64,000 nucleotides of DNA from Parcubacteria group bacterium Gr01-1014_20 (GCA_007376265.1 VMFW01000005.1:198-64197), one strand, 5' to 3'; positions 37,163 through 52,885 are shown, counted from the first letter of the stretch. The notes: generated by a model not told the origin, from the letters alone. Numbers and translations are program-made.

Positions 37163-37201
37163 TTTGAATACTAAATAGGATAGGTCATTCTAGAACACGA
37201 A

Positions 37202-38149: not shown

Positions 38150-38155
38150 GGTGAA

Positions 38156-38857
38156 TTACGTGTATTTATTGGTTTTAAATTCTTCTGGACGGCCATCGAG
38201 GACTAATTCTGTCTCGTTGCTCCCAATGTAAAATTCGTAAATTTTTTGCGCGACTTCATCTGGATCCATGCCATATGTAAACTCCTCTCTGGTTTTGACT
38301 CTGGTTAAGTAAACCCCTTTGACCCGAATGTTTTTTTTTCTTGCTTCGAGGGCTAGGGAGTTGGTGAAACCTCGAAGACCCCATTTGGTTGTGCCGTAAA
38401 GAATGTTAGTTTCTTTGAACTCGAGGCCGACGATAGAATTCATATTTATGATGGTCCCTCCACCCATCCTCGTAAAACTTTTGTAGATTCTTCTTGAAAG
38501 TTTTATCAAGGAAACCAAGTTGGTTGTGAGAATCTTGTCGATTTTTGTGTCGTCTATATCCTCGAATGGAACTCCGTAAGCGCTTAAGATGTCAGCGGCG
38601 TTATTGACCAGGACGCTTGATCCACCCCCCCTCAACGCCTCTAGCTCTAAGAGATTGATGGTTTTTGACAGCATGAGGTCGCCGAGAACCTGGGAGCAGG
38701 CTACTCCCAGCGCCTTAATCCTCTCTGAAACTTTTTCTAATTTGTCTTTGTTCCTCCCATGAATGACTAGGTCGTAACCGTTCGTCGCAAAAGCAATGGC
38801 CAAAGACTCACCCAAGCCCGTACTGGATCCGGTAATAATTGCTTTTTTTCGAATCAT
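38156..38857 (-). CDS. short-chain dehydrogenase/reductase
   Basis: KAIITGSSTGLGESLA...NNAA...YGTTK. Confidence 0.7.
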   Translation of the reverse strand: MIRKKAIITGSSTGLGESLAIAFATNGYDLVIHGRNKDKLEKVSERIKALGVACSQVLGDLMLSKTINLLELEALRGGGSSVLVNNAADILSAYGVPFEDIDDTKIDKILTTNLVSLIKLSRRIYKSFTRMGGGTIINMNSIVGLEFKETNILYGTTKWGLRGFTNSLALEARKKNIRVKGVYLTRVKTREEFTYGMDPDEVAQKIYEFYIGSNETELVLDGRPEEFKTNKYT

Positions 38858-38859
38858 GA

Positions 38860-39828
38860 TTATTTGGCTTTGGGTTTAACAAAGAACTCGTTATGGTTGT
38901 AAATTCTTTCTATCTCCTTTAATTCGGTTGAGGTTAGTGGGGTTAAACTGCTTGCCTTAAGATTCTCTACTACATCACTCTGACTAATCATACCCGGGAT
39001 TACGGCTGATACAACTTTATATGCGAGGCAAAACTGTAGCGCCAGTTGAGCCAAGTTTCTGTCCTTACCTTTATTTATGTGAGCAAAAAGTTCTGGGGCT
39101 CTTGCCCACGTCGCTATTTGCTCAACCGGCCAGCTGGAGCGATGATCTCGAGGGTCGAATTTAGCACCGGAATACTTGCCCGTCAAAAACCCAAAACAAA
39201 GGGGTGTTCTAGCCACAACTCCAATGTTTTTCTCGAGGGCGATTTCCATAAAACCGTTTTCAACTATCCTTTGATCAATCATGTTGAAATTAACCTGGAC
39301 GGATTCGAATCCAAGTTCATTCACGGCAATTAGGGAGTCGGCCGGCTTTCTTACTGAAACTCCGAATGCCAAGATTTTACCCTCTTTTTTCAAAGACTTC
39401 AGGGTTTCAATGATATTTTTTTCTTCCCTAACCACTTCAATAACCGGACTGTGAAGCTGATACAAGTCAATGTATTCGGTTTTTAGCCTCCTCAGGCTTT
39501 CCTCTAGTGAGTGGCGGATGTTTTGACTTGAGAAGTTTTGGGGTTCGTTATGGTCCGAAAATCCAACTTTTGTCGCGATTACTATATCTTTTCTTACGTC
39601 CTTAAACGTTTCTCCAATAAGTTCTTCACTGTGTCCGTATCCATAAACCCCCGCCGTATCGTAAAGAGTGATACCGTTGTCGTAGGCCAGCCGGAGTGCT
39701 TTTTTAGATTCGGCGTCATCGACTGGGCCATAGGAGGTTGCTCCCTTTGTTACTCCCCCAATCCCCCACGCCCCGAAACCAATCTCTGAAACCCTAAGAC
39801 CAGAACTTCCAAGATTCCTATATTTCAT
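38860..39828 (-). CDS. aldo/keto reductase
   Basis: MKYRNLGSSGLRVSEIGFGAWGIGG AKR N-terminus. 322 aa. Confidence 0.75.
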   Translation of the reverse strand: MKYRNLGSSGLRVSEIGFGAWGIGGVTKGATSYGPVDDAESKKALRLAYDNGITLYDTAGVYGYGHSEELIGETFKDVRKDIVIATKVGFSDHNEPQNFSSQNIRHSLEESLRRLKTEYIDLYQLHSPVIEVVREEKNIIETLKSLKKEGKILAFGVSVRKPADSLIAVNELGFESVQVNFNMIDQRIVENGFMEIALEKNIGVVARTPLCFGFLTGKYSGAKFDPRDHRSSWPVEQIATWARAPELFAHINKGKDRNLAQLALQFCLAYKVVSAVIPGMISQSDVVENLKASSLTPLTSTELKEIERIYNHNEFFVKPKAK

Positions 39829-39831
39829 ATG

Positions 39832-40791
39832 TTAAACTCCCACCGGAGACCAAACAACAACTGAATAACCGTCGACAAATAAGCTTCCGATGTAGGTTCG
39901 TTGCGCTTGGTGAATTTTAATTCGGCCTCCTAGTTCTAGCCTTCTAAGAAAGTGCAGAAAACCATTCAGATAGTTTCTTTTTTTAAAATACTCAATGGAT
40001 AAGTAGTCCAAAAAGTTTGTTTCATCTAATAGTTCCGTGATGGGTTCAATATGGATGCAAATTTTTGGTTTATTCGAAAGTAGGTAGGTGATAAACTTTT
40101 CAAAGTTTTGTCCGGCTTGTTCAAGCGCGGCCACAGTATAAACAGCACTACCCGGCTCAAGACGAAAACTGTTGTCTGGGTTAAAAAAATCAAAGAGGTG
40201 TCCGGTTATGTTTTTTTCTAAGCCGGCCTCCTTTAGTAAGGATATGATTTTTTCTGCGGTGCTAGTCCAATCACATCCGTGGAGGCTGGCGGTTTTGTTT
40301 ATTTGTCTAGTCCTGAGCAGGTTGTGGCTGGTGCCGCAACCAAACTCGTAGATAGAAGGAACGTCTTTTAGGTATTTCTCAAACAACCAGTACTCTATTA
40401 CCGCAAGCATGTTGTATTCGAAATCTACAGAAAGCGGCTTAATAAGATCCTGCTTCCACCTAACAGCACCGTACTTACCGAAGTAGCGTGGGATCAGCGC
40501 GCTAACGACTTTGCTTTTCTCAAGAGTCGACAGGTTTTCGTGCCACCCCATTTCCCACTGACTTAACCTATGCTCCCCCGCGGGAATCACATTGTAATCG
40601 TTGATCGTTTTAACAATCTTTAACAACCAGGAGTCTCTTTCGGCCCGGCTAAAACTGCTATAAAGAAAGGGGTGGTTTTCTATCCACCCCGAGAGTTGGG
40701 GGGATATTTTTTCTCCTAGGACATTCTCGAAGTCGACTGGTAGTAGGGCAATTTTCTCTTTTTGGGTGAGGTTCGCTGAGTTATCGCTCAT
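39832..40791 (-). CDS. class I SAM-dependent methyltransferase (candidate sugar O-methyltransferase)
   Basis: 319 aa. IYEFGCGTSHN motif-I-like glycine loop. Confidence 0.45.
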   Translation of the reverse strand: MSDNSANLTQKEKIALLPVDFENVLGEKISPQLSGWIENHPFLYSSFSRAERDSWLLKIVKTINDYNVIPAGEHRLSQWEMGWHENLSTLEKSKVVSALIPRYFGKYGAVRWKQDLIKPLSVDFEYNMLAVIEYWLFEKYLKDVPSIYEFGCGTSHNLLRTRQINKTASLHGCDWTSTAEKIISLLKEAGLEKNITGHLFDFFNPDNSFRLEPGSAVYTVAALEQAGQNFEKFITYLLSNKPKICIHIEPITELLDETNFLDYLSIEYFKKRNYLNGFLHFLRRLELGGRIKIHQAQRTYIGSLFVDGYSVVVWSPVGV

Positions 40792-40801
40792 GAAAAAGTA
40801 A

Positions 40802-41863
40802 TTAACTGTTAGTTGATTTTTCTCTGGCCAGATTCCACTCGATTGTTCTTTTTAAACCCTCTCGTAAAGCCACCTGGGGCTTGAAGCCGAATTCATTTTC
40901 CATCTTTTTCATGCTCAAGCAAACTCTAGAGGGGGCACCAATAACACTTGGGTCTTTTCCTGGTCCCGATACTACCATAGTTCCCATAAGCTCTCCGATT
41001 AGTAGGGCTAGCTCTTTGATGGTTACCTCCTCTTCTTGTGAGCCTACATTATATATCGCGTCTTTGGAAAATAGCAAAATGTTTAAGAGTTGCCTTAGGA
41101 CATCTGACATATAACAGAAACTCCTTAGATCCCTTCCGTCGTCGACCATGTTGATGACTTTTTCTAGATGGGCTTTTTTCATAAACTGACTAATGACTCG
41201 TTCGTCATCAAAGCTTAAGCCTGGTCCATAAGACAGTGCAGGACGGGCGATTCGAATATTAAGACCGTATTTTTGCATATAGCTTAAGCATAAGACTTCA
41301 GAGAGTCGTTTTGACTCAATGTAGCAAGCACGGTTGTTGGTAATTGAACTTGAGCCTTCATACGTTTCTGGGGTAGGAAAGCTTTCGGGAGTCGGTGAGC
41401 CGTAAATTTCGCTACTGCTTAGGTAAAGAATTCTGGCGTGAGGGCTGGTTTTGACAGCGCTTTCTAAGATGCTCTTTATGCCGATGTAGTTTACATCAAT
41501 GGTTCGAACGGGATTTTCCAAGAATGCGGCTGGGGCCGCATAGCCAGCGGCGTGGACAATAAAGTCGTATTTTTCATTGTAAACGTTGGGTTCTGATAGA
41601 TCTTTATTGGTAATCAGGAAATTGTTTGCATTCAGAAGAGCATATATCCTAGAGTTTTCTGTGATCTCGCTTTTAGTGACTAGGTGAACCTTGGTTTTGT
41701 AGTTAAGTTCTTCATTTAGGTAACTAAAAAAATAGGCGAGATAAGACCCAATAAGACCATTAGCTCCAGTGAGTAGGACGCTTTTGTTTCTTAGACCCAG
41801 AGAGTTAGTGCAGTCGGATATTTTTTTGACGTCCTCTAGTACTATTTTATCGATTAATTTCAT
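40802..41863 (-). CDS. NAD-dependent epimerase/dehydratase
   Basis: VLLTGANGLIGSYLAYF Rossmann motif. 353 aa. Confidence 0.65.
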   Translation of the reverse strand: MKLIDKIVLEDVKKISDCTNSLGLRNKSVLLTGANGLIGSYLAYFFSYLNEELNYKTKVHLVTKSEITENSRIYALLNANNFLITNKDLSEPNVYNEKYDFIVHAAGYAAPAAFLENPVRTIDVNYIGIKSILESAVKTSPHARILYLSSSEIYGSPTPESFPTPETYEGSSSITNNRACYIESKRLSEVLCLSYMQKYGLNIRIARPALSYGPGLSFDDERVISQFMKKAHLEKVINMVDDGRDLRSFCYMSDVLRQLLNILLFSKDAIYNVGSQEEEVTIKELALLIGELMGTMVVSGPGKDPSVIGAPSRVCLSMKKMENEFGFKPQVALREGLKRTIEWNLAREKSTNS

Positions 41864-42752
41864 GAATGGCTTTCACTATACCTTCTTTGGTCAAACCATT
41901 AGCTTGACAGTGCTCCTCGTAAGAGCCGTAGTTGAGCAAAAATTTGTCCTCAATCCCCAATCTAGTATGTCGGAATGGGACCTTACTGCAAATTCTGGAG
42001 ATTTCATCTCCGATACCGCCAATAACGGAGTGTTCCTCTACGGTGACAAGTTTCTTGGTTTTTCCGAGACTTTTTATTAAAGTTCCGACAGAGTCCTCAG
42101 AGATCGGTTTGATGGTAGTTAAGTAGATTAGGTCACATTCGATTCCTTTTTCTTTCAGTTCGCTGACGGCGTTATTGGCATTCTCAAGTTGTGGCCCAGC
42201 AACAACTAAGGTAACGTCTTTGCCATTTATAATAGTTTCGACTTCGCCAAACTTGGGGTTGGTTTTTAAGCCGTGAGACTTGGCGGGGAGACGAAAGTAG
42301 GTAGGATGTCCGTTCGAGTAGGTTTCCCTAAATAGGGTGTCTAACTCGTGGGGAGCGGCGGGATATACGATCTGCATATTAGGTAAGGATCGCAATATGG
42401 CAATATCGTCGTATGAATGATGGGTGCATCCCAGTGATGCGTAGTCAAAGGCACTCCCGACGCTAACTATGTTTACCCCCACATCTTGATAACAAAGGTC
42501 GTCTTTTACCTGCTCGAAACATCTTTCGGTTACAAAGGGGGTGATGCTATGAACAACCGGAAAGAGGCCGCCCAGAGCTAGTCCGGAAGCCATACTCATC
42601 ATTGACTGCTCCGCCACGCCCATATTATAAAAACGGGTTCTGTGACTTTCCTCAAAATCTTTGAGTAGGAAGTGGCTAATATCGCCGATTAGAACAACCA
42701 GTTTGTCGTCTTTTCCTAATTCAAGTAGGGTTTTGGCAAATTGTTTTCTCAT
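41847..42752 (-). CDS. transketolase, C-terminal subunit (split two-gene transketolase)
   Basis: 301 aa. Pyrimidine-binding and C-terminal domains. Overlaps the N-terminal subunit gene by 4 nt. Confidence 0.75.
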   Translation of the reverse strand: MRKQFAKTLLELGKDDKLVVLIGDISHFLLKDFEESHRTRFYNMGVAEQSMMSMASGLALGGLFPVVHSITPFVTERCFEQVKDDLCYQDVGVNIVSVGSAFDYASLGCTHHSYDDIAILRSLPNMQIVYPAAPHELDTLFRETYSNGHPTYFRLPAKSHGLKTNPKFGEVETIINGKDVTLVVAGPQLENANNAVSELKEKGIECDLIYLTTIKPISEDSVGTLIKSLGKTKKLVTVEEHSVIGGIGDEISRICSKVPFRHTRLGIEDKFLLNYGSYEEHCQANGLTKEGIVKAIHEINR

Positions 42753-43510
42753 TTGAGTACTTCTTTTTTAAACATCTCCAGCTCCAGCTCTGTTGGTGCT
42801 TTGTGGTGCCAAGTAAAGAAGTTACTTTCCATCTCTCTAATACCCTTACCTTTCGTGGTGTTTGCTATGACACAAAGTGGTTTTGGGTGGTTGATATTGT
42901 TTTTATTGAAGAGTACTTCGGCTATTTCGCTGAGATCGTGGCCGTTTATTTCTCGGACTTCCCACCCGAAAGAAAGAAATTTGTCTTTCAGGTTTATTGA
43001 TGTCATTGCCCGGGTTTGAGATTTATTATTGTCAATAATAGCTACTAGGTTTAGGAGTTTGAGTTGTTCGGCATACATGGCTGTTTCCCAGATCGTTCCC
43101 TCGTTGGTTTCGCCGTCGCCGATGATGCAAAAGACTCTTCCCGGTTCGTTTTTTATTTTTTTTGAGAGAGCATAGCCGGCGGCGATTGGGAAGCCGTGAC
43201 CCAAAGACCCTGATGAGTTTAGTATGCCAATCTCGGGATTCTTGTGGGGGTGACCTCCCAAAACAGAGTCGTACTTACAAAAGGTGTCTAGCTCACTTTT
43301 AGTAATGTAGCCAAAATGAGCCAAAACGGCGTATAGAGCGGCGCTGGCGTGACCCTTGCTTAAAAAGAACTGATCGTTTTTTGTTTTATTTAGATGTATT
43401 GAGTAAAGGAGCTCCACAACCGAGAGGGCGCTTGGTATGTGTCCTTCTCCGGCCCGAGAAACCATCTCCAAAATGTTGAGCCTAATACCTTTTAGGTCTT
43501 CTTGGGGCAT
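42749..43510 (-). CDS. transketolase, N-terminal (TPP-binding) subunit
   Basis: 253 aa. LSKGHASAALYAVL...GSLGHGFPIAAGYAL...GDGETNEG TPP-binding motifs. Confidence 0.75.
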   Translation of the reverse strand: MPQEDLKGIRLNILEMVSRAGEGHIPSALSVVELLYSIHLNKTKNDQFFLSKGHASAALYAVLAHFGYITKSELDTFCKYDSVLGGHPHKNPEIGILNSSGSLGHGFPIAAGYALSKKIKNEPGRVFCIIGDGETNEGTIWETAMYAEQLKLLNLVAIIDNNKSQTRAMTSINLKDKFLSFGWEVREINGHDLSEIAEVLFNKNNINHPKPLCVIANTTKGKGIREMESNFFTWHHKAPTELELEMFKKEVLK

Positions 43511-43602
43511 TGTTTGAAAAAATTATACTCGAGATCTCTGGGGTTGGGTAGTCAAACGAGCCGGAATGGATGTGTTTTCATTGATGCCCGTTTATCCTGT
43601 TT

Positions 43603-44355
43603 TTAGGCCTGCTTGCTGAAAAATTTTTGGGCTTTTTCATATCGTTCCGGAGTGCCGATGTCAACCAGCTCTGCTTCGGAGATAAAAGCAAGGCACTTCT
43701 GTCCTAGGATTTTGGGGAAGAGGTCGTACTCAATAGAAAATGCTACTTGGGGGGGTAGAAGACTCAGTATTGTCTTGTTCATGAAATACATACCCGCATT
43801 TACGAAGCCGCCATCGCCTCCAACAACTTTCTCATTAAAACTCAGAATTTGCCCTAGTGGGTTCGTTCTTACAACTCCGTAATCTAATGACTTCCGAGGA
43901 GCGGTAACCGCAATCGAGAGCGTCCCTTCTTTTTCAGTATGAAAAAGATAGAACTTCGGCAAATCCACATCACAGAAGGAGTCACCGTTCATGACTAAGA
44001 AATTTTCACTCCCAACCATTTCGCCAGCCTTCTTCAGCGCACCACCAGTACCAAGGGGGGTTTCTTCTTCTGAGAAAACGAAGTTGTTTGCGCGAGGGTG
44101 ATTTTTGAAATGTTTTACAATTTTCTCTTTCATGTAACCAGTGCTCAAAATAATCCTATTAAAGCCGTGAGCGAAGAGACGATCGACCAGGATATCTATG
44201 AAAACCCGACCTCCTACTTCCGCAAGAACTTTGGGACGATCAGACACAACAGTCCTTAATCTTTTCCCTTCGCCCCCACATAAAATAACCGCATCTATGT
44301 TTTTGAAGGGGTTGGGGATGCTTTCTGTTTTTTTACTCGATATCTGATGGACCAT
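43603..44355 (-). CDS. sugar-1-phosphate nucleotidyltransferase, HddC-like (D-glycero-alpha-D-manno-heptose-1-P guanylyltransferase family)
   Basis: AVILCGGEGKRLRTVVSDRPKVLAEV G-loop. 250 aa. Overlaps the GHMP kinase gene by 23 nt. Confidence 0.65.
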   Translation of the reverse strand: MVHQISSKKTESIPNPFKNIDAVILCGGEGKRLRTVVSDRPKVLAEVGGRVFIDILVDRLFAHGFNRIILSTGYMKEKIVKHFKNHPRANNFVFSEEETPLGTGGALKKAGEMVGSENFLVMNGDSFCDVDLPKFYLFHTEKEGTLSIAVTAPRKSLDYGVVRTNPLGQILSFNEKVVGGDGGFVNAGMYFMNKTILSLLPPQVAFSIEYDLFPKILGQKCLAFISEAELVDIGTPERYEKAQKFFSKQA

Positions 44356-45328
44356 AGTAAATTACTTGACTGCCAATATTTTCGAATTTAACGGGGACGC
44401 AGAGCAAATTCTTTAGCTTTTCCTTAACGGCTGATTGAAACTCTGGCCTTACATAGAAGAGCATAAAACCACCCCCCCCTGCTCCGAGCAACTTCCCTCC
44501 CAGAGCTCCGGCTTGGCGGCCGGCTTCGTAAATTTCATCGATGTGTTTATTGGTAACCTGGGAAGTGAGCTGTCTTTTTATTTTCCAATTTTCGTGCAAG
44601 AGGCGGCCAAAATCGTCAAAGTTGTTTTCGCTTTCGATAATCGAGACGGCTTGATTAACCATGTCTTTCATTGTTTGTAATTCTTTGCTTTTTTCTGGTG
44701 TTCGGCGAATTTGTTCTGCTGCAATGTCGGACGCGTTTCTGGTGAGGCCCGTAAAAAACAAGAGCAGGCAGCTTTCAAGGGACTTGAGCTTTTCTAACTT
44801 CATGGTAACTGGAAAAACTGAAATGCGCTGTGGGCCGCCAAATTCGATCTTGTTGAAACCACCAAAGGCGGTTGCAACCTGATCTTGAGATCCAACATTT
44901 TCCTTGAGGATATCCTGCTCGACGTTGATTGCGTCAAAGGCTAGTTGCCTTTTTGTGACAAGACGACCCTGTAGGGCGTGTAGGGCGTGGATAAGACCGA
45001 CAGTGAATGCTGAACTAGAACCAAGCCCGGAACGAGCGGGCAAATCAGCATCGTGGTGAATTTCTACCCCCTTTTTGACATTTAAAAATTTTAGAGTTTC
45101 CCTTGCTGTTGGGTGTTGAATCTCATCTAGGTGTTTCACTGCTTCTATCCTTGACCAGACTAATCGGTGTTTGTGATCGAAAAACGGCGGGAGATACCTG
45201 CAGGTTATATAGCAGTAATTATTTATAGACGCAGAAAGAACGGCGCCGCCATTATCTTCGTACCAAGCTGGGTAATCGGTGCCCCCTCCAAAGAAAGAGA
45301 TCCTAAATGGTGTACGCGTGATGATCAT
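44333..45328 (-). CDS. GHMP-family kinase, HddA-like (heptose 7-phosphate kinase family)
   Basis: MIITRTPFRISFFGGGTDYP...SGLGSSSA. Paralog of 23395..24381. Confidence 0.65.
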   Translation of the reverse strand: MIITRTPFRISFFGGGTDYPAWYEDNGGAVLSASINNYCYITCRYLPPFFDHKHRLVWSRIEAVKHLDEIQHPTARETLKFLNVKKGVEIHHDADLPARSGLGSSSAFTVGLIHALHALQGRLVTKRQLAFDAINVEQDILKENVGSQDQVATAFGGFNKIEFGGPQRISVFPVTMKLEKLKSLESCLLLFFTGLTRNASDIAAEQIRRTPEKSKELQTMKDMVNQAVSIIESENNFDDFGRLLHENWKIKRQLTSQVTNKHIDEIYEAGRQAGALGGKLLGAGGGGFMLFYVRPEFQSAVKEKLKNLLCVPVKFENIGSQVIYYGPSDIE

Positions 45329-46272
45329 TAAACATTAGAAAACTGATGTCGCCGGACGACTTTATATCCTCGAATAAGCTCGGCGATGCCCTCGTCCAGT
45401 GAGATTTGGGTTTTGAAACCCGTTTTTTCAATCTTGGAATTGTTCACGATGTAATTACGTTTGTCGGGGTCTTTGCCGATTTTAGACTCAATAAAAACAA
45501 AACTTGGTATTTGTTTTTTTATCTCTTCGCAAAGTTCTAATTTGCTCAGATTGGCGTCAGAAAGACCGACGTTGTAGGTTTCGTTTTTCATGGTTTCGAA
45601 ATTTTCCATGGTGTGCATAAAGGCGTTGGCCACATCTCGAACGTGTATATAGTTGCGTTTAAAGTGTGGCTCGAACAAAACCACAGCTCCATCGTTAACT
45701 GCCCGATAAACAAAGTCATTCACTAGAAGATCAAGTCGCATTCGGGGACTAATTCCAAAAACGGTAGCCAGCCTGAGAGTGATTGTGTTTCCAGCCTCAA
45801 GCAGCTCTTTTTCGGCCTGCACTTTGAGTTTGCCATACAAAGAGACGGGATCGAGGGCGCTAGTTTCATCGCAGAAGGCAACTCCTTCGGCCATTCGGCC
45901 GTAACCGCTGTTGGTGTTTGGGAAAATTATTTTCTGTTCTTTTTCTCGAAGGCGCGCAATGGCTTGAATTGCTTCTAAGTTGGTTGTGCGAGCTCCGATA
46001 GGATCTTTATCGCAGCTCGGGGCGCCAACAACGCAGGCAAGGGGGATGATAAAATCCTTGTCTTTGAGGTTTTGTTTTATTAGCTCTTCGTCGCGCGCAT
46101 CCCCACGCACGATAGTGAGGGTTTTAAAGTTACAGACATCAAGGAGGGGGGTTTGATTGTAAATAAAACTATCGATGACGGTAACTTCATGACCTCTACG
46201 CAAAAGCTCTGGAACCAGTATGGATCCAATGTAGCCAGCTCCACCTGTGATAAGAATTTTCCTGGGCGACAT
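45328..46272 (-). CDS. NAD-dependent epimerase/dehydratase
   Basis: KILITGGAGYIGSILV. 314 aa. Confidence 0.65.
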   Translation of the reverse strand: MSPRKILITGGAGYIGSILVPELLRRGHEVTVIDSFIYNQTPLLDVCNFKTLTIVRGDARDEELIKQNLKDKDFIIPLACVVGAPSCDKDPIGARTTNLEAIQAIARLREKEQKIIFPNTNSGYGRMAEGVAFCDETSALDPVSLYGKLKVQAEKELLEAGNTITLRLATVFGISPRMRLDLLVNDFVYRAVNDGAVVLFEPHFKRNYIHVRDVANAFMHTMENFETMKNETYNVGLSDANLSKLELCEEIKKQIPSFVFIESKIGKDPDKRNYIVNNSKIEKTGFKTQISLDEGIAELIRGYKVVRRHQFSNV

Positions 46273-46277
46273 GGTAT

Positions 46278-46796
46278 TTACAAATACTTACCCTGCTCAT
46301 CCCGTTGCGAAACGATCGGATTCTTTACTGGCCACCAGATATTCAGCTTGGGATCGTTCCACTTGTAGGTAAACTGCTTCTCTGGGTTGTAGTAGGTTGA
46401 TTGTTTATAGTGAAAAATCGAAAGGTCGCTTAAAACCAAGTGAGCATTACCGTGTTTTGGGGGCACCAGGACCTGAAGGTGGTTTTCTGATGATAGGAGG
46501 AATGATTGCCACTGCCCAAAGGTTGGAGACGTTCCATCGCAGTTTACGACGACAAAGTAAAAACGCCCGTAAAGGCAGGATATTAGTTTCCAAGTTTCGG
46601 TATCACCGTGAATACCCCTAAGGACATGCTTACTCGAGACAGAAATGTCATCTTGAACAAAGTCGACATTAATACCGGTCTCAGCGTACAGGTTTTTACT
46701 GTAGGTTTGGACGTAATGACCCCGAAAGTCTTCGAAGACTTCCGGCTTAATTGTTATGACTCCCTCGAGTTTAGTTTTAGAAATCTCCATTCTCAT
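46278..46796 (-). CDS. RmlC-like cupin sugar-nucleotide 3,5-epimerase
   Basis: 172 aa. KLEGVITIKPEVFEDFRGHY...RGIHGD pattern of dTDP-4-dehydrorhamnose 3,5-epimerase-like enzymes. Confidence 0.65.
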   Translation of the reverse strand: MRMEISKTKLEGVITIKPEVFEDFRGHYVQTYSKNLYAETGINVDFVQDDISVSSKHVLRGIHGDTETWKLISCLYGRFYFVVVNCDGTSPTFGQWQSFLLSSENHLQVLVPPKHGNAHLVLSDLSIFHYKQSTYYNPEKQFTYKWNDPKLNIWWPVKNPIVSQRDEQGKYL

Positions 46797-46959
46797 GTAA
46801 TGAGTCCTTAATACTACGGGTTATTTATAGACCAATTACCTGTCTCTTTCAAGCCTTTTCGGCGGACTTGGTCAAGATGTGGAATTTTTCAATCTAGGAG
46901 AGACAGTCTTCCACCACAAGGAGGTGGCTGTTTAATAACGGCACGTAGCGTTGGGGTTT

Positions 46960-47511
46960 CTACTTTTCGTTGTAGTAATCTCCGTATTCTACGAGTAGAG
47001 TGGACTTTCCGTCCGGACGATTGATGGCTTTTTCATATTCCGGGAAGATTTGCTCTGGAGTGTCTAACCTCACAACTTCTATATTTTTTACGAGCAAACG
47101 CATGGCTTCGGTGAAGTCACCGCTATGTTGAACCCCGGGAAAAAGTGGTCTCTCTGATCCAATGGCAGTTTTAATGATAACTTTTGGCCAAACTTTTCCA
47201 TTAGTAATAACCGGGATTTTATCGAGGTGGTTAACCAACTGATTTAATGCCAGAAGGAGGAAATTGAATCGTGGGTAAATGCTGATCGGTATATAACCCG
47301 CTAATGCTAAACCGATCGACATGCCCATTTGGGTTTCTTCAAAAACCGGGAGTTCAATTCTTTTCTCGAGAGGTACGTTTTCAATGGTCTTAAAGATACT
47401 GTTTCCTGGAAAAGCTACGCTCTGCCCAATAAATAAGGTGCTGGGATTTTCTGCCAAATACAACATGGCTCTTGTAAGTTCTGATTTGTATCTTAGTTGT
47501 TCCATGCTCAA
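46960..47511 (-). CDS. short TPP-enzyme E1 beta-like / transketolase pyrimidine-binding-domain protein
   Basis: 183 aa. Resembles only the N-terminal (Pyr) domain of 2-oxoacid dehydrogenase E1 beta/transketolase (FIGQSVAFPG...ETQMGMSIGLALAGYIP). Confidence 0.5.
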   Translation of the reverse strand: MSMEQLRYKSELTRAMLYLAENPSTLFIGQSVAFPGNSIFKTIENVPLEKRIELPVFEETQMGMSIGLALAGYIPISIYPRFNFLLLALNQLVNHLDKIPVITNGKVWPKVIIKTAIGSERPLFPGVQHSGDFTEAMRLLVKNIEVVRLDTPEQIFPEYEKAINRPDGKSTLLVEYGDYYNEK

Positions 47512-47523
47512 TAAATTAAAGGC

Positions 47524-48111
47524 TTATCCGAAAGTAACCCACTTGCCACTGCCATAATGGGGATATTTATTCTTTTTATGTTCATACTTTGTAACTTTAT
47601 TTGCGGATTTCTCTTCTCCCCATGCTTTTTTAGTTGGAGTATTAGTTGAAATCCCGTTGTCCTCAATTACGAAAGAGATGGGGAGATTGTTTCGCTCTGC
47701 ATAGTTTACCGCTTCATGGAAAATGCCACCCTCGGCGGCCATATCTCCAACAAACACCCAGACGTGCTCAGTTAATTTTTTTTGCTTTATGGCGAAAGCC
47801 ACTCCGAGCGCAATCGGTGTGTTCCCACCGACAATCCCAGAGGAGTAGAAACGATGTTCGGGGTTACAAACGGTAATACTATTGCCTCGGATGATTTCTT
47901 CACGCAACCAGATTGGACTAACACCGTGCAAGAGAGCATGATAATGACTGCGATGGGTAGAAAAAACCCAATCGTTAGGTTTAATATCCCTGAATATTTC
48001 TATAAGTTGGTCCTCGTTACCATCGGAAAGATGGATGGGGGCTTTAATTTTACCGGTCTCAAACAGAGATGCGATATCTTCTTCGAACTTTATTAGCTCT
48101 TCTTTAGTCAT
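47524..48111 (-). CDS. short TPP-binding E1 alpha-like protein
   Basis: Track ORF 47524..48234 trimmed to internal start MTKEEL (48111). The longer form would overlap the upstream fcl-like gene by 130 nt and begins with low-complexity sequence. HRSHYHAL...GGNTPIALGVAFA...GDMAAEGG TPP-binding pattern. Confidence 0.5.
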   Translation of the reverse strand: MTKEELIKFEEDIASLFETGKIKAPIHLSDGNEDQLIEIFRDIKPNDWVFSTHRSHYHALLHGVSPIWLREEIIRGNSITVCNPEHRFYSSGIVGGNTPIALGVAFAIKQKKLTEHVWVFVGDMAAEGGIFHEAVNYAERNNLPISFVIEDNGISTNTPTKKAWGEEKSANKVTKYEHKKNKYPHYGSGKWVTFG

Positions 48112-49048
48112 AGGCAATAGTTTGCTCGAACCAGTCAATTGTATTCTTGAGTCCAGTTTCAAACGAGGTGCAGGATTTAAACCCGAATTCTCTTTCGGCC
48201 CGGGTGGCGTCGAGCATCCTTCGGGGCTGGCCATCGGGCTTAGACTTGTCCCACCTTACTTCCCCTTGGTAATTCATTATTCTACAAATTAACGCGACAA
48301 GATCTCGAATTGACGTTTCGGTGCCCGACCCCAAGTTAACTGGATCGGGTTTATCGTATTTTTCGCTTGCCAAAATAATCCCCTCGGCTGATTCCTCGAC
48401 GTACAAAAATTCTCGCGTAGGAGTCCCCGTCCCCCAAACTTCAATATAGTCCTTGCCTTGTTTTTTAGCAACGGCCACTTTCCTGATAAGGGCGGGGATG
48501 ACGTGAGAGCTCCTCTCTTCGAAATTGTCGCCTGGGCCATACATATTGACTGGGAAAAGCGTTATGGCATTGAAGTCATACTGTTGCCTATAGGCCTGGG
48601 CTTGAACAAGGAGCATTTTCTTAGCTAGTCCATATGGGGCGTTAGTTTCCTCCGGGTACCCATTCCATAGGTTTTCCTCCTTGAAAGGAACGGGGGTAAA
48701 TTTCGGGTAGGCACAGATAGTGGCAACTCCAACGAATTTCTTAACTCCAGCTTGTCTTGCGGCTTCCATTATTTGTGTCCCCATGATTAAGTTGTCGTAG
48801 AAAAGCTCGCCTGGCTTTTCCCGGTTGAGACCGATGCCTCCAGCCCTGGCAGCGAGATGGATCACAACGTCAATCCCGTTAGTAGCTGCTTTGCAATTTT
48901 CCATCATCCGTAAGTCGCAATCGGAAAAGCGAGGTGCTGTTATGTTTTCAAGCGGAACTTTTCTTTTTTCAACAAGGTTTTTTATTAACCTGGCACCAAG
49001 AAAGCCATGGCCGCCGGTGACTAATATTCTTGCTTTTTTCAGGTCCAT
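48104..49048 (-). CDS. GDP-L-fucose synthase-like 3,5-epimerase/4-reductase (second Fcl/DmhB-family copy)
   Basis: ARILVTGGHGFLGARL...YGLAKK. 314 aa. About 50 percent identical by eye to 37202..38149. Confidence 0.7.
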   Translation of the reverse strand: MDLKKARILVTGGHGFLGARLIKNLVEKRKVPLENITAPRFSDCDLRMMENCKAATNGIDVVIHLAARAGGIGLNREKPGELFYDNLIMGTQIMEAARQAGVKKFVGVATICAYPKFTPVPFKEENLWNGYPEETNAPYGLAKKMLLVQAQAYRQQYDFNAITLFPVNMYGPGDNFEERSSHVIPALIRKVAVAKKQGKDYIEVWGTGTPTREFLYVEESAEGIILASEKYDKPDPVNLGSGTETSIRDLVALICRIMNYQGEVRWDKSKPDGQPRRMLDATRAEREFGFKSCTSFETGLKNTIDWFEQTIAYD

Positions 49049-49122
49049 ATTGGAAATTTATACCACAGGGGGAACCCGGAGCAAAGAAAGAAGCTGGAAA
49101 GTAGGCTCGACTTTTCTCATAT

Positions 49123-49584
49123 TCACCTAAAACCGCTTATCTTTAGAAAGGTTCTTAGGTAGGGGTCAGAGTTCGCTTTGATCTTACGAAACCATTTGAA
49201 ATCAGAGCTCTGGTCATCTAAGGTTATTTTTACTTTTCGCTTAACCTCGACTTCAAAAACTATCGCAACGACATGCGAAGCAAAACCTTTGAAGTAGCTC
49301 GCTTTGGGATTATAGAAGTGATCGTGAACACCGAGGAATTTCCAATTTTTTCCCGAAACTCCGACTTCTTCTTTTAGTTTTCGCTTTGCAGTTTCAACTA
49401 GGCGTTCCCCTTTTAAAACTCGGCCGCCTGGAAAATACCAAGCGTTGGCTTCGGGATTATTTTTCCTCTTGACAAGCAAGAATTCCTGGTTGTTTTTCAC
49501 AACTAAGTCAACAGTGACGATCGGTAAAACTTGGTGAATCTTTCGATAAAGAGCCGGAGGGATTAATTTCGTAACAGGCTTCAT
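49123..49584 (-). CDS. NUDIX hydrolase (GDP-mannose mannosyl hydrolase Gmm/NudD-like)
   Basis: GGRVLKGERLVETAKRKLKEEVGV NUDIX box. Sits in the classical position between gmd and fcl. Confidence 0.65.
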   Translation of the reverse strand: MKPVTKLIPPALYRKIHQVLPIVTVDLVVKNNQEFLLVKRKNNPEANAWYFPGGRVLKGERLVETAKRKLKEEVGVSGKNWKFLGVHDHFYNPKASYFKGFASHVVAIVFEVEVKRKVKITLDDQSSDFKWFRKIKANSDPYLRTFLKISGFR

Positions 49585-49599
49585 GGCTCTTCGATAGAC

Positions 49600-50592
49600 T
49601 TAGGAAGTTCGGGCTTCTTTCATATCGGCGTCAACCATAACCTTAACGAGGTCGGCAAATTTTGTTTTGGCTTCCCACCCGAGTTTATCTTTGGCTTTCC
49701 TAGAATCAGCCGCAAGGTTGTCAACTTCCGTCGGCCGATAGTAACGCGAATCGAAATCGACGTAATCTTTCCAGTTCAATCCCGCGTGAGCAAAAGCGGC
49801 CTCTAGAAACTCCTTGACCGAATGAGACTCACCAGTGCCGATCACGAAATCTTCCGGTTTTTCTTGCTGGAGCATAAGCCACATGGCTTCAACGTACTCG
49901 GGGGCGTAACCCCAATCGCGTTTGGCTTCTAAGTTTCCTAGATATAACTTTTTATCTAATCCGGCTTTAATTCTAGCAATGCCACGAGTTATTTTGCGGG
50001 TGACAAACGTCTCTCCTCGACGGGGACTTTCGTGATTAAAAAGGATCCCATTTACCGCAAACAGGTTGTAGGCTTCGCGGTAGTTGACTACTGTGTTGTA
50101 GGCAAAAACTTTGGCAATGGCGTAGGGGCTCCGAGGGTAGAACGGAGTGGTTTCGCTTTGGGGTGGCGGAGTAGCTCCAAACATTTCGGAACTCGATGCC
50201 TGATAGAACCTTACCTTCTTGCTGACGTGCTCTTGATAATCTTTGATCGCTTCGAGCATTCTTAGCGTCCCTAAAGCCGTGATGTTGGCGGTATACTCGG
50301 GGATATCAAAAGAAACCCTGACGTGGGATTGGGCTCCGAGGTTATACACCTCGTCTGGTTGAATTTTGTAAAGAAGCTTCCGGATCGTGTTAGCGTCGGC
50401 GAGATCGCCGTGGTGCAAAATTAGCCGTTTGGAGACTTCGTGGGGATCTTGATAGATGTGGTTGATTCGACCCGTGTTGAAGGTGGAGGCACGTCGAATG
50501 ACGCCATGGACTTCATACCCCTTTGAAAGAAGTAGCTCAGCTAGATAGGAACCGTCCTGGCCAGTTATTCCCGTAATAAGGGCTTTAAGCAT
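49600..50592 (-). CDS. gmd: GDP-mannose 4,6-dehydratase family (Gmd/DmhA)
   Basis: [34 protein letters not shown]...YAIAKVFA. 330 aa. Confidence 0.85.
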
Positions 50593-50658
50593 TGTATTCT
50601 TATAATACTTTAGGGGGGAGTCGTCAATCGGGGAGCTGGGGGTGAGTCGGCTGTTTTT

Positions 50659-51294
50659 TCACCTTGCTTTCGTTTTGGTTTTGTCGGCTTGACTCAAAAA
50701 CTCTTGCAGGAGAGTTTTCGTTCTGTCATCAGCCGGCCATTGACTCAAGATTTTCTCTGCGACTTTTACTGTTTCAGGAACATTCCCTTCTAACCGAAAA
50801 ACATCAAAGGCGCCGTAAAGAGACTGGGGTCGGCTGGGCCCAGATTCAAGCGCTTTCAGAAAATATTTTTTGGCCGAGTTGAAGTAGGCGGGGTCTTGGG
50901 TTTTGAGGTAGGCAAGCTCGTTGATTGAACCCAGAACGTAAAGATTCTGGCTGAAGCTCATCCCGCGATTACGGCGAATAATCGGATCGTAGTATTTCTC
51001 GGCAAAGGTTATTAGTTTTTTGATTATTTGAGGGTCGTTATTTTGTTGAGTGATACTCAAGATAGCGCTGCCAAGCTGGCGGACTAGCTCTTCTTGCCCG
51101 ATGGGGGATGGGGCATCTAAAATCGTCGAAAAGTTTTTTTCAAAATCCGCTATTGAGGCTGTCGCGCCAAGTGACCGCATGGTCAATATAAAACCGCTCG
51201 ATTTTTTGAACGGCAAATAGGAGCCAAGATAGGCTATTAGCGCCATAGCAATAACCAAGAAAACCGAAATAACTCTTTTAAGAATGGGGTTCAT
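50659..51294 (-). CDS. hypothetical membrane-anchored protein (alpha-helical, TPR-like)
   Basis: 211 aa. N-terminal TM anchor. Overlaps the downstream ligase-like gene by 17 nt. Confidence 0.4.
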   Translation of the reverse strand: MNPILKRVISVFLVIAMALIAYLGSYLPFKKSSGFILTMRSLGATASIADFEKNFSTILDAPSPIGQEELVRQLGSAILSITQQNNDPQIIKKLITFAEKYYDPIIRRNRGMSFSQNLYVLGSINELAYLKTQDPAYFNSAKKYFLKALESGPSRPQSLYGAFDVFRLEGNVPETVKVAEKILSQWPADDRTKTLLQEFLSQADKTKTKAR

Positions 51295-52885
51295 GTTTCG
51301 AATTAAACTGGTGAGAGGCGAAAGCTAGAAAGAGAAACAGGTTGATGTAGACTGGTAAAACATCGAACAGGGCAAGCGCCTGGACTAAATAAGCAATTGG
51401 AAGAGTTATGAATAAACCCCTTAAAACAACATTGCTATAGGGCTTTCCATCGGAATGGGTGACTTCTCCGGAGTCAAACCGTTTGTGCCAATGTTTAAAA
51501 AGTTGCCAGTAGAAAACAATAAAGACTACCATGTAGCTTAAAAGACCAAGGATCCCGGTCTCGGTAAGATAGTCAAAAAAAACACTGTGAGCTCGGTCAA
51601 ACCACGTTTCTGAAACCTTCCCTGGCTTGTAGTGCCGTGAGTCAAAGTGGCGATCGAAAACTGTGCTGAAGTTTTCTTGGCCCCACCCTAAAATCGGCCG
51701 CTCCTTGAAGCCTTTCCAGGCTGACCCCCAGGTCCAAAGACGGGTTTGAACTGAATCGGCTTTTAAGCCTTGGTCAAAAAGCTCAAGCACTCTGCCGCCG
51801 GGCAGACTACTCACAAGCGGCGTTTGACGATAATAATATAGGCCAGCTATCGCTAAAACAAAGACGCTCAGCGCAGCCAGAGTCCATCTTTTCCAGTTTC
51901 TTGGGAGAAAAAAGACTAAATAGAAAAGGAGAACTAGGGTGCTGACGAACAATCCCAGGATAGCGCCACGGGTTTGGCTTAAAGTCAGGAAAAAGGTAAA
52001 ACACCAAATAAGAAAACCATAAAAGAGGGAGAGTGGTTCTCGTTTGCGAAATCCATAAACTAGGGAACCACAAAAGATTAGGAGGCCTAAAATCAACAGA
52101 GTTACAGGTACCGCTGAAGAAGTGGCGGAGAGTGTGGTTGTTATAAAAAAATAGGAAGAAATCATTGAAAAAGCTAAGAAAACCCCAGTAGCAGAAACGA
52201 GCGCTTTTGCTTTTGGGTTGCGATTGAACCATAGATAGGTGGCGTAGAAAAGGGAGAACATCAGATAAGGAGCGACGTAGGATGGATTACCTAGGGTTCC
52301 TTGAAATCTCGCAATAGTTAACCTTCCCCAAACGCTGGGTGGGACTTCCGCTCCATATGGACCAATGAGGCGACTAATCCAACACGTCTGGTCTAAATCG
52401 AAAGACGAACAACCTAATTGCGCAAAAACACCGTACAAAATAAGGAGAGCGGCAGCGGCGAGAGAAAGTCGGAGCGCCCACTTCCAGTCTTTCCACTCTC
52501 TGAAGAGAACTGTAAGCAAGACAAAAAAAATGTAATAGTGCAACAGTTGAAAACCACCTTCGCCCCTTTCAAAATTCGACCAGAAAGCGCCGAGGGGATC
52601 AAAAGCAAAGAGCGAGGCGAGTAATCCGATGAAGGCAAAAATTGAAACGGCCAAAAAAATAGGTTGCCTGGAAACTTTTTTCAACCTTTCCCAGATTTGG
52701 TTTGATTTATCAAAAAACCCCCAAAAAAGGATGAGGGAGGCAAGGGCGAATTCGACGGCTAACCTGAAAAAGTAATATTTGCCTCCGATAAAAGGAAAGA
52801 AGGTTGAGGGCAACACAATGACAACGCTAAACAGGGCGGCGTACAGAAAAATTTTAGAAATTTTTACCAAGATGTTTGGATTCAT
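51278..52885 (-). CDS. O-antigen ligase/polymerase-like polytopic membrane protein
   Basis: 535 aa with 12+ TM helices and a large periplasmic loop. Ends the glycan locus. Confidence 0.5.
   Translation of the reverse strand: MNPNILVKISKIFLYAALFSVVIVLPSTFFPFIGGKYYFFRLAVEFALASLILFWGFFDKSNQIWERLKKVSRQPIFLAVSIFAFIGLLASLFAFDPLGAFWSNFERGEGGFQLLHYYIFFVLLTVLFREWKDWKWALRLSLAAAALLILYGVFAQLGCSSFDLDQTCWISRLIGPYGAEVPPSVWGRLTIARFQGTLGNPSYVAPYLMFSLFYATYLWFNRNPKAKALVSATGVFLAFSMISSYFFITTTLSATSSAVPVTLLILGLLIFCGSLVYGFRKREPLSLFYGFLIWCFTFFLTLSQTRGAILGLFVSTLVLLFYLVFFLPRNWKRWTLAALSVFVLAIAGLYYYRQTPLVSSLPGGRVLELFDQGLKADSVQTRLWTWGSAWKGFKERPILGWGQENFSTVFDRHFDSRHYKPGKVSETWFDRAHSVFFDYLTETGILGLLSYMVVFIVFYWQLFKHWHKRFDSGEVTHSDGKPYSNVVLRGLFITLPIAYLVQALALFDVLPVYINLFLFLAFASHQFNSKHEPHS

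Follow-up and report, generated by a model that had tools for sequence, protein, structure and literature searches.

Branching of nucleotide sugars by thiamine pyrophosphate (TPP)-dependent enzymes is, to our knowledge, represented by one characterized enzyme, YerE, and by genetically assigned enzyme pairs that resemble the E1 component of pyruvate dehydrogenase (PDH) and occur in a few antibiotic clusters. E1-like heterodimers to which the addition of a two-carbon branch has been assigned are Pau11/Pau12 (paulomycose), AviB1/AviB2 (eurekanate) and EvdU5/EvdS3. Beside Pau11/Pau12, the aldo-keto reductase (AKR) Pau7 reduces the ketone of the branch, and in everninomicin biosynthesis the UXS-like enzyme EvdS6 supplies UDP-4-keto-xylose for a TPP-dependent branch. 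We know of no description of TPP-dependent branching for heptoses or for primary surface glycans, and literature searches for TPP together with GDP-heptose, for split transketolases in polysaccharide loci and for transketolase together with branched-chain nucleotide sugars returned nothing relevant. Here, a stretch of 64,000 nucleotides from Parcubacteria group bacterium Gr01-1014_20 (GCA_007376265.1, VMFW01000005.1:198-64197; hereafter the window) is described, in which a shortened E1-type gene pair, called mini-E1 alpha and beta, and a split transketolase (TK-N and TK-C) lie among genes for the synthesis of nucleotide sugars.

Among the other described systems that come close to this locus are the nucleotide-heptose routes of Campylobacter. 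The chemistry of the dehydrogenase Cj1427 has been described there; the enzyme uses 2-oxoglutarate as co-substrate, and subsequently Cj1430 epimerizes C3/C5 and Cj1428 reduces C4 (PMC10680097). A preliminary description of positions 41847–50592 of the window had read the genes as a single linear pathway to a modified GDP-6-deoxyheptose, in which the transketolase supplies sedoheptulose-7-phosphate. Instead, the genes fall apart into three separate nucleotide-sugar modules: a fucose-type module around gmd (module A), a GDP-heptose cassette that includes mini-E1 (module B) and the split transketolase with a partner dehydrogenase (module C). The probability that the stretch is indeed a mosaic of three such modules, in a Wzx/Wzy-type surface-glycan locus of a member of the Parcubacteria (candidate phyla radiation, CPR), is put at roughly 0.6. 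The preliminary interpretation is thus partly supported, and the interest moves from a new 6-deoxyheptose to two uncharacterized TPP-dependent modules for the tailoring of nucleotide sugars.

Organization of the Locus

The interval 41847–50592 contains eleven open reading frames (ORFs), where nine genes had been counted before. All eleven are on the minus strand, in line with the co-directionality noted earlier, and the families given previously for all listed genes hold. "Mostly overlapping" turned out to be too strong, as overlaps (-1 to -23 nt) are found at only 5 of the 10 junctions, the remaining junctions being 5–163 nt apart. Family and ortholog assignments, the state of active-site residues and the synteny statistics reported below were computed, whereas the chemistry ascribed to both TPP enzymes, the nucleotide carrier of module C and the structures of the final sugars are inferred. 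The largest gaps in the eleven-gene run measure 163 nt (between mini-E1 beta and the rmlC-like gene) and 92 nt (between the nucleotidyltransferase gene and TK-N). These gaps, at 46797–46959 and 43511–43602, are the sole sizeable intergenic ones and match the proposed module boundaries. A TATAAT hexamer is located immediately upstream of the TK-N start codon.

The co-directional run itself spans 32799–54409, well past the interval originally flagged, with RNase Y at the 54409 end. Promoter- and terminator-like sites within 32000–51500 occur at chance level only, which is consistent with long operons, and an Rfam search of the window returned no RNA family. The surrounding glycan locus of ~44 kb encodes an initiating transferase, a Wzx flippase, two Wzy-like proteins and many glycosyltransferases.

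A Predicted GDP-Heptose Cassette with Oxidation at C4

Judged from its proteins, module B is predicted to encode a GDP-heptose pathway in which the 4-keto intermediate arises by oxidation rather than by 4,6-dehydration. Central to this prediction is an extended short-chain dehydrogenase/reductase (SDR) at 45328–46272 (-), previously labeled an epimerase. It matches PDB entries 6vo6/6vo8 at 362 bits over its full length (residues 4–313), the next PDB match reaching 74 bits. In a sequence search the 6vo6 chain was 96% identical to a cluster of 313-aa C. jejuni proteins, and we take it to be Cj1427, which would make the SDR of the window a C4-dehydrogenase of that type. Because the match to 6vo6 is at the level of an ortholog, the heptose would be oxidized at C4 without 6-deoxygenation and the 6-hydroxyl group would be retained. 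The following step, epimerization at C3/C5, would be performed by an RmlC-like cupin of the Cj1430/MlghB type (46278–46796, -; PF00908, 170 bits), a putative GDP-4-keto-heptose C3/C5 epimerase. The eight best PDB matches of the cupin are all C. jejuni heptose epimerases (including 7m14, 8db5, 7ang, 7an4, and 8dco) with 125–129 bits; 7ANG, 7AN4, 7ANI, and 7ANJ are DdahB/MlghB.

The genes that would activate the heptose are only in part located next to these two. An HddC-like sugar-1-phosphate guanylyltransferase (43603–44355, -) has Yersinia pseudotuberculosis HddC as its best PDB match (5xhw/6jq8, 120 bits), and an HddA-like GHMP kinase (44333–45328, -), the presumed heptose-7-phosphate 1-kinase, best matches the heptose kinases 3k85, 4usk, and 4n3o (~135 bits). 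The sedoheptulose-7-phosphate isomerase gene gmhA is found at 34010–34591 (-). It had been thought to complete the chain, and the gene is indeed there, but the pathway also requires a GmhB phosphatase, which had gone unmentioned. A GmhB-type heptose-1,7-bisphosphate 7-phosphatase domain is present in residues 12–172 of the protein encoded at 17982–18857 (-), where it is joined to a degenerate nucleotidyltransferase remnant; the domain has the DRDGT motif and scores 134.8 bits with TIGR01656, above the cut-off of 84. The GmhA-, HddA-, GmhB-, and HddC-like proteins each have the right family as best match. Moreover, synteny among their orthologs, seen in over 10 genomes, supports the four assignments. 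The suggested parallel with the nucleotide-heptose routes of Campylobacter therefore stands, as gmhA and the HddA- and HddC-like genes are present and their orthologs adjoin gmhA/gmhB in many genomes.

A Shortened E1-Type Enzyme Pair

Mini-E1 alpha (47524–48111, -) is a shortened TPP-binding (PP-domain) subunit of the E1alpha type with a length of 195 aa. Its match to PF00676 is limited to profile positions 6–177 of 300, and the profile of the family corresponds to residues 48–212 of the 365 residues of human PDH E1alpha, i.e., to the PP domain only. An AlphaFold2 model (pLDDT 81.5) superimposes on E1alpha with a TM score of 0.71 on the query and 0.39 on the target. The TPP-binding motif GDM...EDN is invariant across the family. 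Mini-E1 beta (46960–47511, -) is likewise reduced to a Pyr domain: it matches PF02779 without the Transketolase_C domain (PF02780), aligns to the Pyr domain of E1beta, and keeps the cofactor glutamate (PVFEE) and the His-Ser motif (QHS). A mechanically called ORF for the alpha subunit counts 236 aa from 48234 and overlaps fcl, but the true start is Met42 at 48111. The gene callers of the source contig place the E1alpha start at the same position (195 aa) and give a beta subunit of 181 aa, two codons shorter than the 183-aa ORF.

The mini-E1 alpha proteins form a family of ~195 aa with 55–92% identity, comprising 188 clusters at E ≤ 1e-30 among 1.84 billion representatives. Single-chain alpha-beta fusions occur as well. 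Inteins (Hint/LAGLIDADG domains) are present in some alpha members, and one member carries a fused APH-type phosphotransferase domain (P0365, P0372, P0420).

In known E1 enzymes, residues of the C-terminal half of E1alpha serve reductive acylation, and the C-terminal domain of E1beta contacts E2. Since mini-E1 lacks both parts, the pair is not filed as a PDH E1. A function as a real PDH E1 was ruled out on the basis of the truncated subunits and the absence of E2/E3 genes; no E2 or lipoyl gene was found in the locus. Membership of the YerE family was rejected too, as only E1_dh and Transket_pyr were matched and none of TPP_enzyme_N/M/C. Nevertheless, mini-E1 may work like YerE. Phosphonopyruvate or sulfopyruvate decarboxylases, which would suggest phosphonate decoration, were discarded because they belong to a different branch of the TPP superfamily and no PEP mutase is encoded nearby. 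The view that the TPP enzymes are an unusual component of such a locus was borne out.

Gene Neighborhoods of the Mini-E1 Pair

Scanning with a mini-E1 alpha profile, with one genome kept per species, yielded 61 loci, and BLASTP was used to compare the proteins of the window with the ORFs found there. The hosts include Patescibacteria, DPANN archaea, Chlamydiae, Chloroflexi, Actinobacteria, Verrucomicrobia, SAR116, Pelagibacterales, and Synechococcus, among others. Of the 61 loci, 53 also have mini-E1 beta next to the alpha gene. An HddA-like and/or Cj1427-like ortholog is present in 23, commonly together with gmhA, gmhB, an HddC-like gene and a cupin gene. Taken by gene, orthologs of the Cj1427-like SDR (49–82% identity) occur in 19 loci, homologs of the HddA-like kinase (40–67% identity) in 17, usually adjoining mini-E1, and gmhA homologs in 10. 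A gmd gene with at least 45% identity is found in 4 loci and a transketolase, at the thresholds used, in a single one (L026). The joining of mini-E1 to a Cj1427-type heptose cassette is a widespread and unstudied gene signature. In DPANN loci without heptose genes, mini-E1 overlaps or abuts other 4,6-dehydratase-like SDR genes.

Clustering of the remaining ORFs showed that 16 of the 23 heptose-type loci encode a DegT/DnrJ/EryC1 enzyme, usually adjacent to mini-E1. In 15 of these 16 proteins, the lysine that forms the Schiff base (ArnB Lys188) is replaced by histidine within the sequence FSFYxxH (L014, L018, L019, L023–L025, L029, L034, L038–L040, L042, L043, L048, and L054). This replacement is the signature of C3-dehydratases that depend on pyridoxal or pyridoxamine phosphate, such as ColD and the E1 dehydrase of ascarylose and yersiniose biosynthesis. 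In the yersiniose route, C3-deoxygenation takes place first and the TPP-dependent branch at C4 is introduced next. The presence of the His-type C3-dehydratase near mini-E1 points to the same order of events. As the window has no C3-dehydratase, its own product would keep the 3-hydroxyl group. Nine of the His-type loci additionally encode B12-binding radical S-adenosylmethionine (SAM) enzymes.

The window also encodes an AKR (38860–39828, -; PF00248, 217 bits), which is a candidate for reducing the carbonyl group of a branch. In L018 and L022, orthologs with 54–57% identity immediately precede mini-E1 alpha, and in L019 a single gene (DegT) lies between the two.

These neighborhoods, namely the heptose cassette, the C3-dehydratase and the AKR, in combination with the E1-like precedents, lead to the proposal that mini-E1 adds a two-carbon unit to a C4 ketone. 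By sequence and by analogy, the most likely function of the pair in the window is the addition of a two-carbon branch, derived from pyruvate, at C4 of a GDP-4-keto-heptose epimer. The shortened, heterotetrameric E1-type enzyme would decarboxylate pyruvate and add the resulting hydroxyethyl carbanion to the C4 ketone, giving a 4-C-acetyl heptose. The AKR or a short-chain reductase would then reduce this product to a 4-C-(1-hydroxyethyl) heptose, a branched sugar of nine carbons.

A Split Transketolase of a Glycan-Specific Clade

The transketolase of module C consists of an N subunit with the PP domain (TK-N, 42749–43510, -; PF00456, 93.8 bits) and a C subunit with the Pyr and C-terminal domains (TK-C, 41847–42752, -; PF02779 and PF02780), both belonging to a glycan-specific clade. 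TK-C shows 100% identity to a transketolase recorded for Parcubacteria group bacterium Gr01-1014_20. TK-C overlaps by 17 nt with the gene of its partner, a UXS/ArnA-like extended SDR (40802–41863, -) that carries an SSSEIYG motif and has human UDP-glucuronate decarboxylase as best PDB match (133 bits).

TK-C homologs were surveyed in 80 loci from a metagenome scan and in four from contig look-ups. Of the 17 homologs with at least 41% identity, 12 have sugar-tailoring genes as neighbors and the remaining five are on short contigs, while sugar genes are found near essentially none of the 67 homologs with 30–37% identity. On long contigs, all homologs with 44–72% identity (CPR bacteria, a Nanoarchaeote, and Nitrospira) are part of glycan clusters, and none has heptose or pentose-phosphate genes nearby. 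The three closest homologs (53–72%) are directly followed by an SDR of ~350 aa; in the Nitrospira locus, an SDR is encoded further downstream. The subclade with at least 53% identity always reads TKN-TKC-SDR, in some cases followed by the gene of a 319-aa protein; an SDR of matching size comes directly after TK-C in L071, L072, L073, and L075. Members of the subclade with 41–48% identity occur with E1alpha-like homologs (31–34% identity) and with C-methyltransferase-like, short-chain SDR and AKR genes.

In L075, a contiguous block of fcl1 (74% identity), TKN, TKC, SDR and the gene of the 319-aa protein is found without heptose genes. In view of this arrangement, the heptose/mini-E1 cassette of the window looks like an insertion between fcl1 and TK-N.

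The residues of the active site were read from an alignment with E. coli TktA. His26, His66, His100, Asp155, Asn185, His261, Arg358, Glu411, and His473 are kept in the clade. Of the residues that bind the sugar phosphate and its 2-hydroxyl group, Ser385 falls in a gap and His461, Asp469, and Arg520 are replaced by Gly, Leu, and Ala, respectively. Generic split transketolases keep Ser/Ala, Asp, and Arg at the positions lost in the glycan clade. The occurrence of the clade in glycan clusters, the loss of the phosphate-binding residues and the UXS-like partner together argue for a tailoring module instead of the supply of sedoheptulose-7-phosphate that had been ascribed to the enzyme. The transketolase is thus probably a glycan-tailoring enzyme. 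The SDR of module C would make an NDP-4-keto sugar, for example UDP-4-keto-pentose from UDP-glucuronic acid, and the transketolase-derived enzyme, its site for sugar phosphates lost, would transfer a two-carbon ketol unit onto this NDP-4-keto sugar.

Glycan clusters with two TPP systems recur elsewhere (L074, L076, L079, and L081–L085). They combine E1 alpha/beta-like, C-methyltransferase-like, short-chain SDR and AKR genes with a split transketolase of the glycan clade; L074, from Nitrospira sp. M1, has full-length E1 alpha/beta-like proteins of 360 and 352 aa. Furthermore, L004 and L005 (JGI contigs, ~10000–20000) have three TPP systems in a row, namely mini-E1 alpha/beta, an acetolactate-synthase-type (YerE-like) TPP enzyme and a split transketolase, in addition to a PanB-like hydroxymethyltransferase. 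Many small upstream ORFs suggest a mobile element or phage context in these two loci.

The 319-aa protein (39832–40791, -) is found with both TPP modules. It has no Pfam or NCBIfam match and no assigned family; on the basis of its EFGCGT motif it is possibly a SAM methyltransferase. Homologs follow TK-SDR in L072 and L075 (52–57% identity), TK-C in L004/5, and mini-E1 beta in L011, L062, and L067.

A Fucose-Type Module around gmd

Module A comprises gmd (49600–50592, -), a NUDIX hydrolase gene (49123–49584, -) and fcl1 (48104–49048, -). Gmd is a canonical GDP-mannose 4,6-dehydratase, as it scores 539.7 bits with the equivalog model TIGR01472 (cut-off 415). The best PDB match is the GMD of Arabidopsis (495 bits), other solved GDP-mannose dehydratases score 335–427 bits, and the GDP-D-glycero-D-manno-heptose 4,6-dehydratase of C. 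jejuni (7us5) scores only 111 bits. The stretch has no other 4,6-dehydratase, and a heptose-specific one of the DmhA/DdahA/WcbK type is absent from it. A 6-deoxy step at the level of the heptose, as formerly assumed, is not borne out by this enzyme.

The second enzyme, Fcl1, resembles the GDP-fucose synthases that act as 3,5-epimerase and 4-reductase. It scores 271 bits with NF047922, for which the equivalog cut-off is 500. In the PDB it is matched best by GDP-L-fucose synthases, aligned over the full length with 199–209 bits, whereas the heptose C4-reductases of Campylobacter (7anh, 7m13, and 7anc) match the N-terminal half only, with 98–134 bits. In the GDP-fucose synthase of E. coli, a Ser/Tyr/Lys triad and the epimerization pair Cys109/His179 have known roles. 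Fcl1 is 37% identical to this enzyme and has Thr at the position of Ser107, while Cys109, Tyr136, Lys140, and His179 are conserved. Being nearer to true GDP-fucose synthases, with the epimerase residues kept, Fcl1 does not fit the role of heptose reductase that it had been given. Gmd and Fcl thus both have GDP-mannose-specific enzymes as their best matches, an outcome that the preliminary description had itself named as speaking against its proposal.

The NUDIX hydrolase (PF00293, 79 bits) is Gmm/WcaH-like; its best NCBIfam match is GDP-mannose mannosyl hydrolase with 75.7 bits, under the cut-off of 146. An equivalent gmd/fcl/gmm trio is carried by the colanic-acid cluster of E. coli. Because Gmd is canonical and Fcl1 is nearest to GDP-fucose synthases, module A is read as a pathway for a fucose-type GDP-6-deoxyhexose: GDP-mannose would be converted via GDP-4-keto-6-deoxymannose to a product of the GDP-L-fucose type.

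A second Fcl-like gene, fcl2 (37202–38149, -), encodes Ala at position 109 and Tyr at position 179 in the alignment to E. coli Fcl; without the epimerase residues, the protein could be a pure reductase. Adjoining fcl2, whose product lacks the Cys/His epimerase pair, is a gene for a TylCIII-type NDP-hexose C-methyltransferase (35897–37162, -; Methyltransf_13/14). This position beside fcl2 suggests a C-methyl-branched 6-deoxyhexose that is fed by Gmd. With such a C-methyl branch, the locus would hold three different sugar-tailoring enzymes that form C-C bonds.

Alternative Explanations

The earlier proposal of one linear pathway, in which sedoheptulose-7-phosphate from the transketolase is converted to GDP-heptose, dehydrated by Gmd, epimerized at C3/C5 and reduced by Fcl to GDP-6-deoxyheptose, has the co-directional and tightly packed gene order in its favor, together with the presence of heptose activation genes and the fact that the two closest relatives (L010 and L019) have gmd and the NUDIX gene next to their heptose cassette. 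It is nonetheless improbable. Gmd is canonical and distant from the solved heptose 4,6-dehydratase, and the Cj1427-type C4-dehydrogenase already gives a 4-keto-heptose. Moreover, mini-E1 loci rarely contain gmd (4 of 61, at least 45% identity) or a transketolase (1 of 61), and the transketolase clade, with its phosphate-binding residues lost, occurs without heptose genes, as the block fcl1-TKN-TKC-SDR-319aa of L075 illustrates. A different possibility concerns mini-E1 alone, which might be a plain 2-oxo-acid decarboxylase or lyase that uses up or forms a 2-oxo acid tied to the ping-pong recycling of NADH by the Cj1427-type enzyme, cleaves the side chain of the heptose or makes an acyl donor for decoration. 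E1-type enzymes are decarboxylases first, carboligation by E1-like sugar enzymes was assigned genetically, one member of the family is fused to an APH-type kinase, and Cj1427 requires 2-oxoglutarate (PMC10680097). However, loci of DPANN and other hosts without a Cj1427 homolog combine mini-E1 with other SDRs that form keto sugars. ColD-type C3-dehydratases also accompany mini-E1, which recalls the yersiniose route, and an AKR ortholog is situated one or two genes before it (L018, L019, and L022), like Pau7 near Pau11/12. A plain decarboxylase or lyase is hence considered unlikely, and addition of a two-carbon branch is preferred.

For the transketolase, the logic of lincomycin biosynthesis (LmbR/N/P/K/O) would imply that it makes an octulose or heptulose phosphate, which is subsequently isomerized, phosphorylated and nucleotidylated. 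Such a logic agrees with a second cassette in the window, where a bona fide transaldolase is encoded together with GmhB, an HddA-like kinase and an isomerase of the SIS type, and with the recurrence of a Tal-GmhB-SIS trio in L068. Nevertheless, this is very improbable, given that the conserved partner of the transketolase clade is a UXS-like SDR and not a kinase or isomerase, that the residues binding sugar phosphates are lost, and that mini-E1 and the Cj1427-like SDR, rather than the transketolase, are the companions of the kinase and the transferase. Only a very slim chance is given to a housekeeping enzyme from the pentose-phosphate pathway that came to lie in a glycan locus by chance. Split transketolases are in use in many genomes of CPR bacteria and archaea, this one has its catalytic His/Glu residues intact, and the genome is viewed through one metagenome contig of 99.7 kb. 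On the other side stand the clade-specific synteny with glycan genes across CPR, DPANN and Nitrospira, the 17-nt overlap with the SDR and the loss of Ser385, His461, Asp469, and Arg520, which generic split transketolases keep. On the grounds of clade-specific synteny and lost phosphate-binding residues a housekeeping transketolase was rejected, and the analysis did not find a sole housekeeping copy placed here by chance, which the preliminary description had named as the other outcome that would speak against it.

Several observations weigh against the three-module reading and the chemistry proposed for it. Scores of the heptose activation enzymes stay under the family cut-offs: the kinase reaches 153.6 bits with HddA, its best NCBIfam match (cut-off 600), the nucleotidyltransferase 135.8 bits with HddC, likewise its best (cut-off 300), gmhA 213 bits with NF010546 (cut-off 276) and 185.5 bits with TIGR00441 (cut-off 209), and the GmhB domain 146 bits with NF006506 (cut-off 178). 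The cupin scores ~115 bits with dTDP RmlC, a small margin to the heptose epimerases (129 bits). The 6vo6 chain is presumably Cj1427, the sequence search having shown its C. jejuni origin. A clear Cj1428-type C4-reductase is not present in the window. The same is true for a ColD-type C3-dehydratase and a B12-radical-SAM enzyme, although the dehydratase accompanies mini-E1 in most other loci. The E1-like precedents for sugar branching were assigned genetically, "through an unknown mechanism", and the residue calls for the transketolase come from an alignment of ~25% identity to TktA, so that they are indicative only. Regarding module A, fcl1 overlaps mini-E1 alpha by 8 nt in the window and directly precedes TK-N in L075. 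As it thus immediately precedes a gene for a TPP enzyme in both settings, it may belong to a TPP pathway and not to a plain fucose pathway; judged from this synteny, fcl1 may serve a branched-sugar route. Lastly, canonical GMDs could in principle accept GDP-heptose.

A Second Sugar-Activation Cassette and Gene Remnants

A second cassette for sugar activation is located at 17982–25349 (-). It contains an SDR gene (24414–25349), the gene of an HddA-like kinase (23395–24381) that is 40% identical to the first kinase, and genes for an NDP-sugar dehydrogenase, a short-chain SDR, a Gfo/Idh/MocA oxidoreductase, a weakly GmhA-like SIS protein and GmhB. The transaldolase of this cassette (19469–20197) scores 333 bits with TIGR02134, above the cut-off of 282. 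By analogy with lincomycin biosynthesis, an enzyme from the pentose-phosphate pathway may have been recruited here to feed a glycan pathway.

The nucleotidyltransferase remnant fused to GmhB lacks the N-terminal GxGTRL region, and the C-terminal end of the transferase is present in another frame at 17776–17955 (-). The region 17776–18857 is either a frameshifted or decayed gene or an assembly error. A gmhA-like fragment at 30894–31376 (-), which is 46% identical to gmhA (34010) over 123 residues and then diverges, is probably the remnant of a pseudogene.

Implications

For both TPP modules together, the following is proposed tentatively, at odds clearly below even. Mini-E1 may be a new minimal TPP carboligase that acts on GDP-4-keto-heptoses and, in archaea, on other NDP-4-keto sugars, and the transketolase without a phosphate site may transfer ketol units to the 4-keto sugar made by its UXS-like partner. 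If true, CPR bacteria, DPANN archaea and many other uncultured lineages would carry branched sugars of nine carbons on their surfaces, and the transketolase would be the first that acts on a nucleotide sugar. The modules can be recognized by two signatures. One consists of gmhA/gmhB/HddA/HddC with a Cj1427-like SDR, optional ColD- or RmlC-like genes and mini-E1 alpha/beta; the other has a UXS-like SDR after TKN-TKC. Each signature is found again in phyla that are very distant from one another, among them lineages with essentially no known glycan chemistry. The finding additionally corrects an annotation logic in which Gmd and Fcl beside heptose genes are read as a 6-deoxyheptose pathway. The enzymes are small, appear soluble and lend themselves to reconstitution in vitro, which could yield new biocatalysts for C-C bond formation as well as new monosaccharides.

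Comparison with Known Systems

Module A is most similar to the colanic-acid genes gmd-fcl-gmm of E. coli. The three families are shared, Gmd exceeds its equivalog cut-off, and Fcl keeps the catalytic and epimerase residues. In contrast to E. coli, the order here is gmd-NUDIX-fcl, Fcl and the NUDIX protein are under their cut-offs, and fcl1 is translationally coupled to a TPP gene.

Module B shares the presumed activation genes, an ortholog-level Cj1427 homolog and a cupin that is putatively of the heptose type with the Mlgh-type route of Campylobacter, as well as the predicted retention of the 6-hydroxyl group through oxidation. It differs from the Campylobacter routes in that no clear Cj1428-type reductase is present, and the TPP pair is absent from all Campylobacter routes described. 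The context is different as well, since the genes belong to a Wzx/Wzy locus of a CPR bacterium and not to a Campylobacter capsule. The architecture of the GDP-octose route of lincomycin, with transaldolase LmbR, isomerase LmbN, kinase LmbP, phosphatase LmbK and guanylyltransferase LmbO, is matched by the second cassette. This likeness concerns a neighboring cassette and not the genes at 41847–50592, and the nucleotidyltransferase there looks degenerate.

With respect to the transketolase, QncN/QncL (and SclQ2/Q3) of NRPS pathways are likewise split transketolase-type subunits that were recruited from central metabolism to move a two-carbon unit into a secondary product. However, they pass this unit to a lipoyl/acyltransferase domain and an acyl carrier protein, whereas such genes are not found with the transketolase described here, which has a UXS-like SDR instead.

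The logic proposed for mini-E1 is that of yersiniose A, in which E1/E3 carry out C3-deoxygenation and an NDP-4-keto sugar receives an acetyl branch from the TPP-dependent YerE and is reduced by YerF; a C3-dehydratase of the His type (ColD/E1-like) is also found near mini-E1 in 15 related loci. YerE is an acetolactate-synthase-type flavoprotein (TPP_enzyme_N/M/C), while mini-E1 is a split and truncated pair of E1_dh and Transket_pyr. The substrates differ too, a CDP-3,6-dideoxyhexose for YerE compared to the proposed GDP-heptose here, where the window has no C3-dehydratase. In protein type, mini-E1 is closer to the pairs of antibiotic biosynthesis (AviB1/B2, Pau11/12 = Plm8/Plm9, and EvdU5/S3), which are likewise TPP enzymes with E1 alpha- and beta-type subunits, encoded in sugar clusters. 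These pairs are full length (325 aa for Pau11 and 345 aa for Pau12, compared to 195 and 181 aa here) and serve antibiotics of actinomycetes, whereas mini-E1 is encoded among genes for the primary surface glycans of uncultured lineages.

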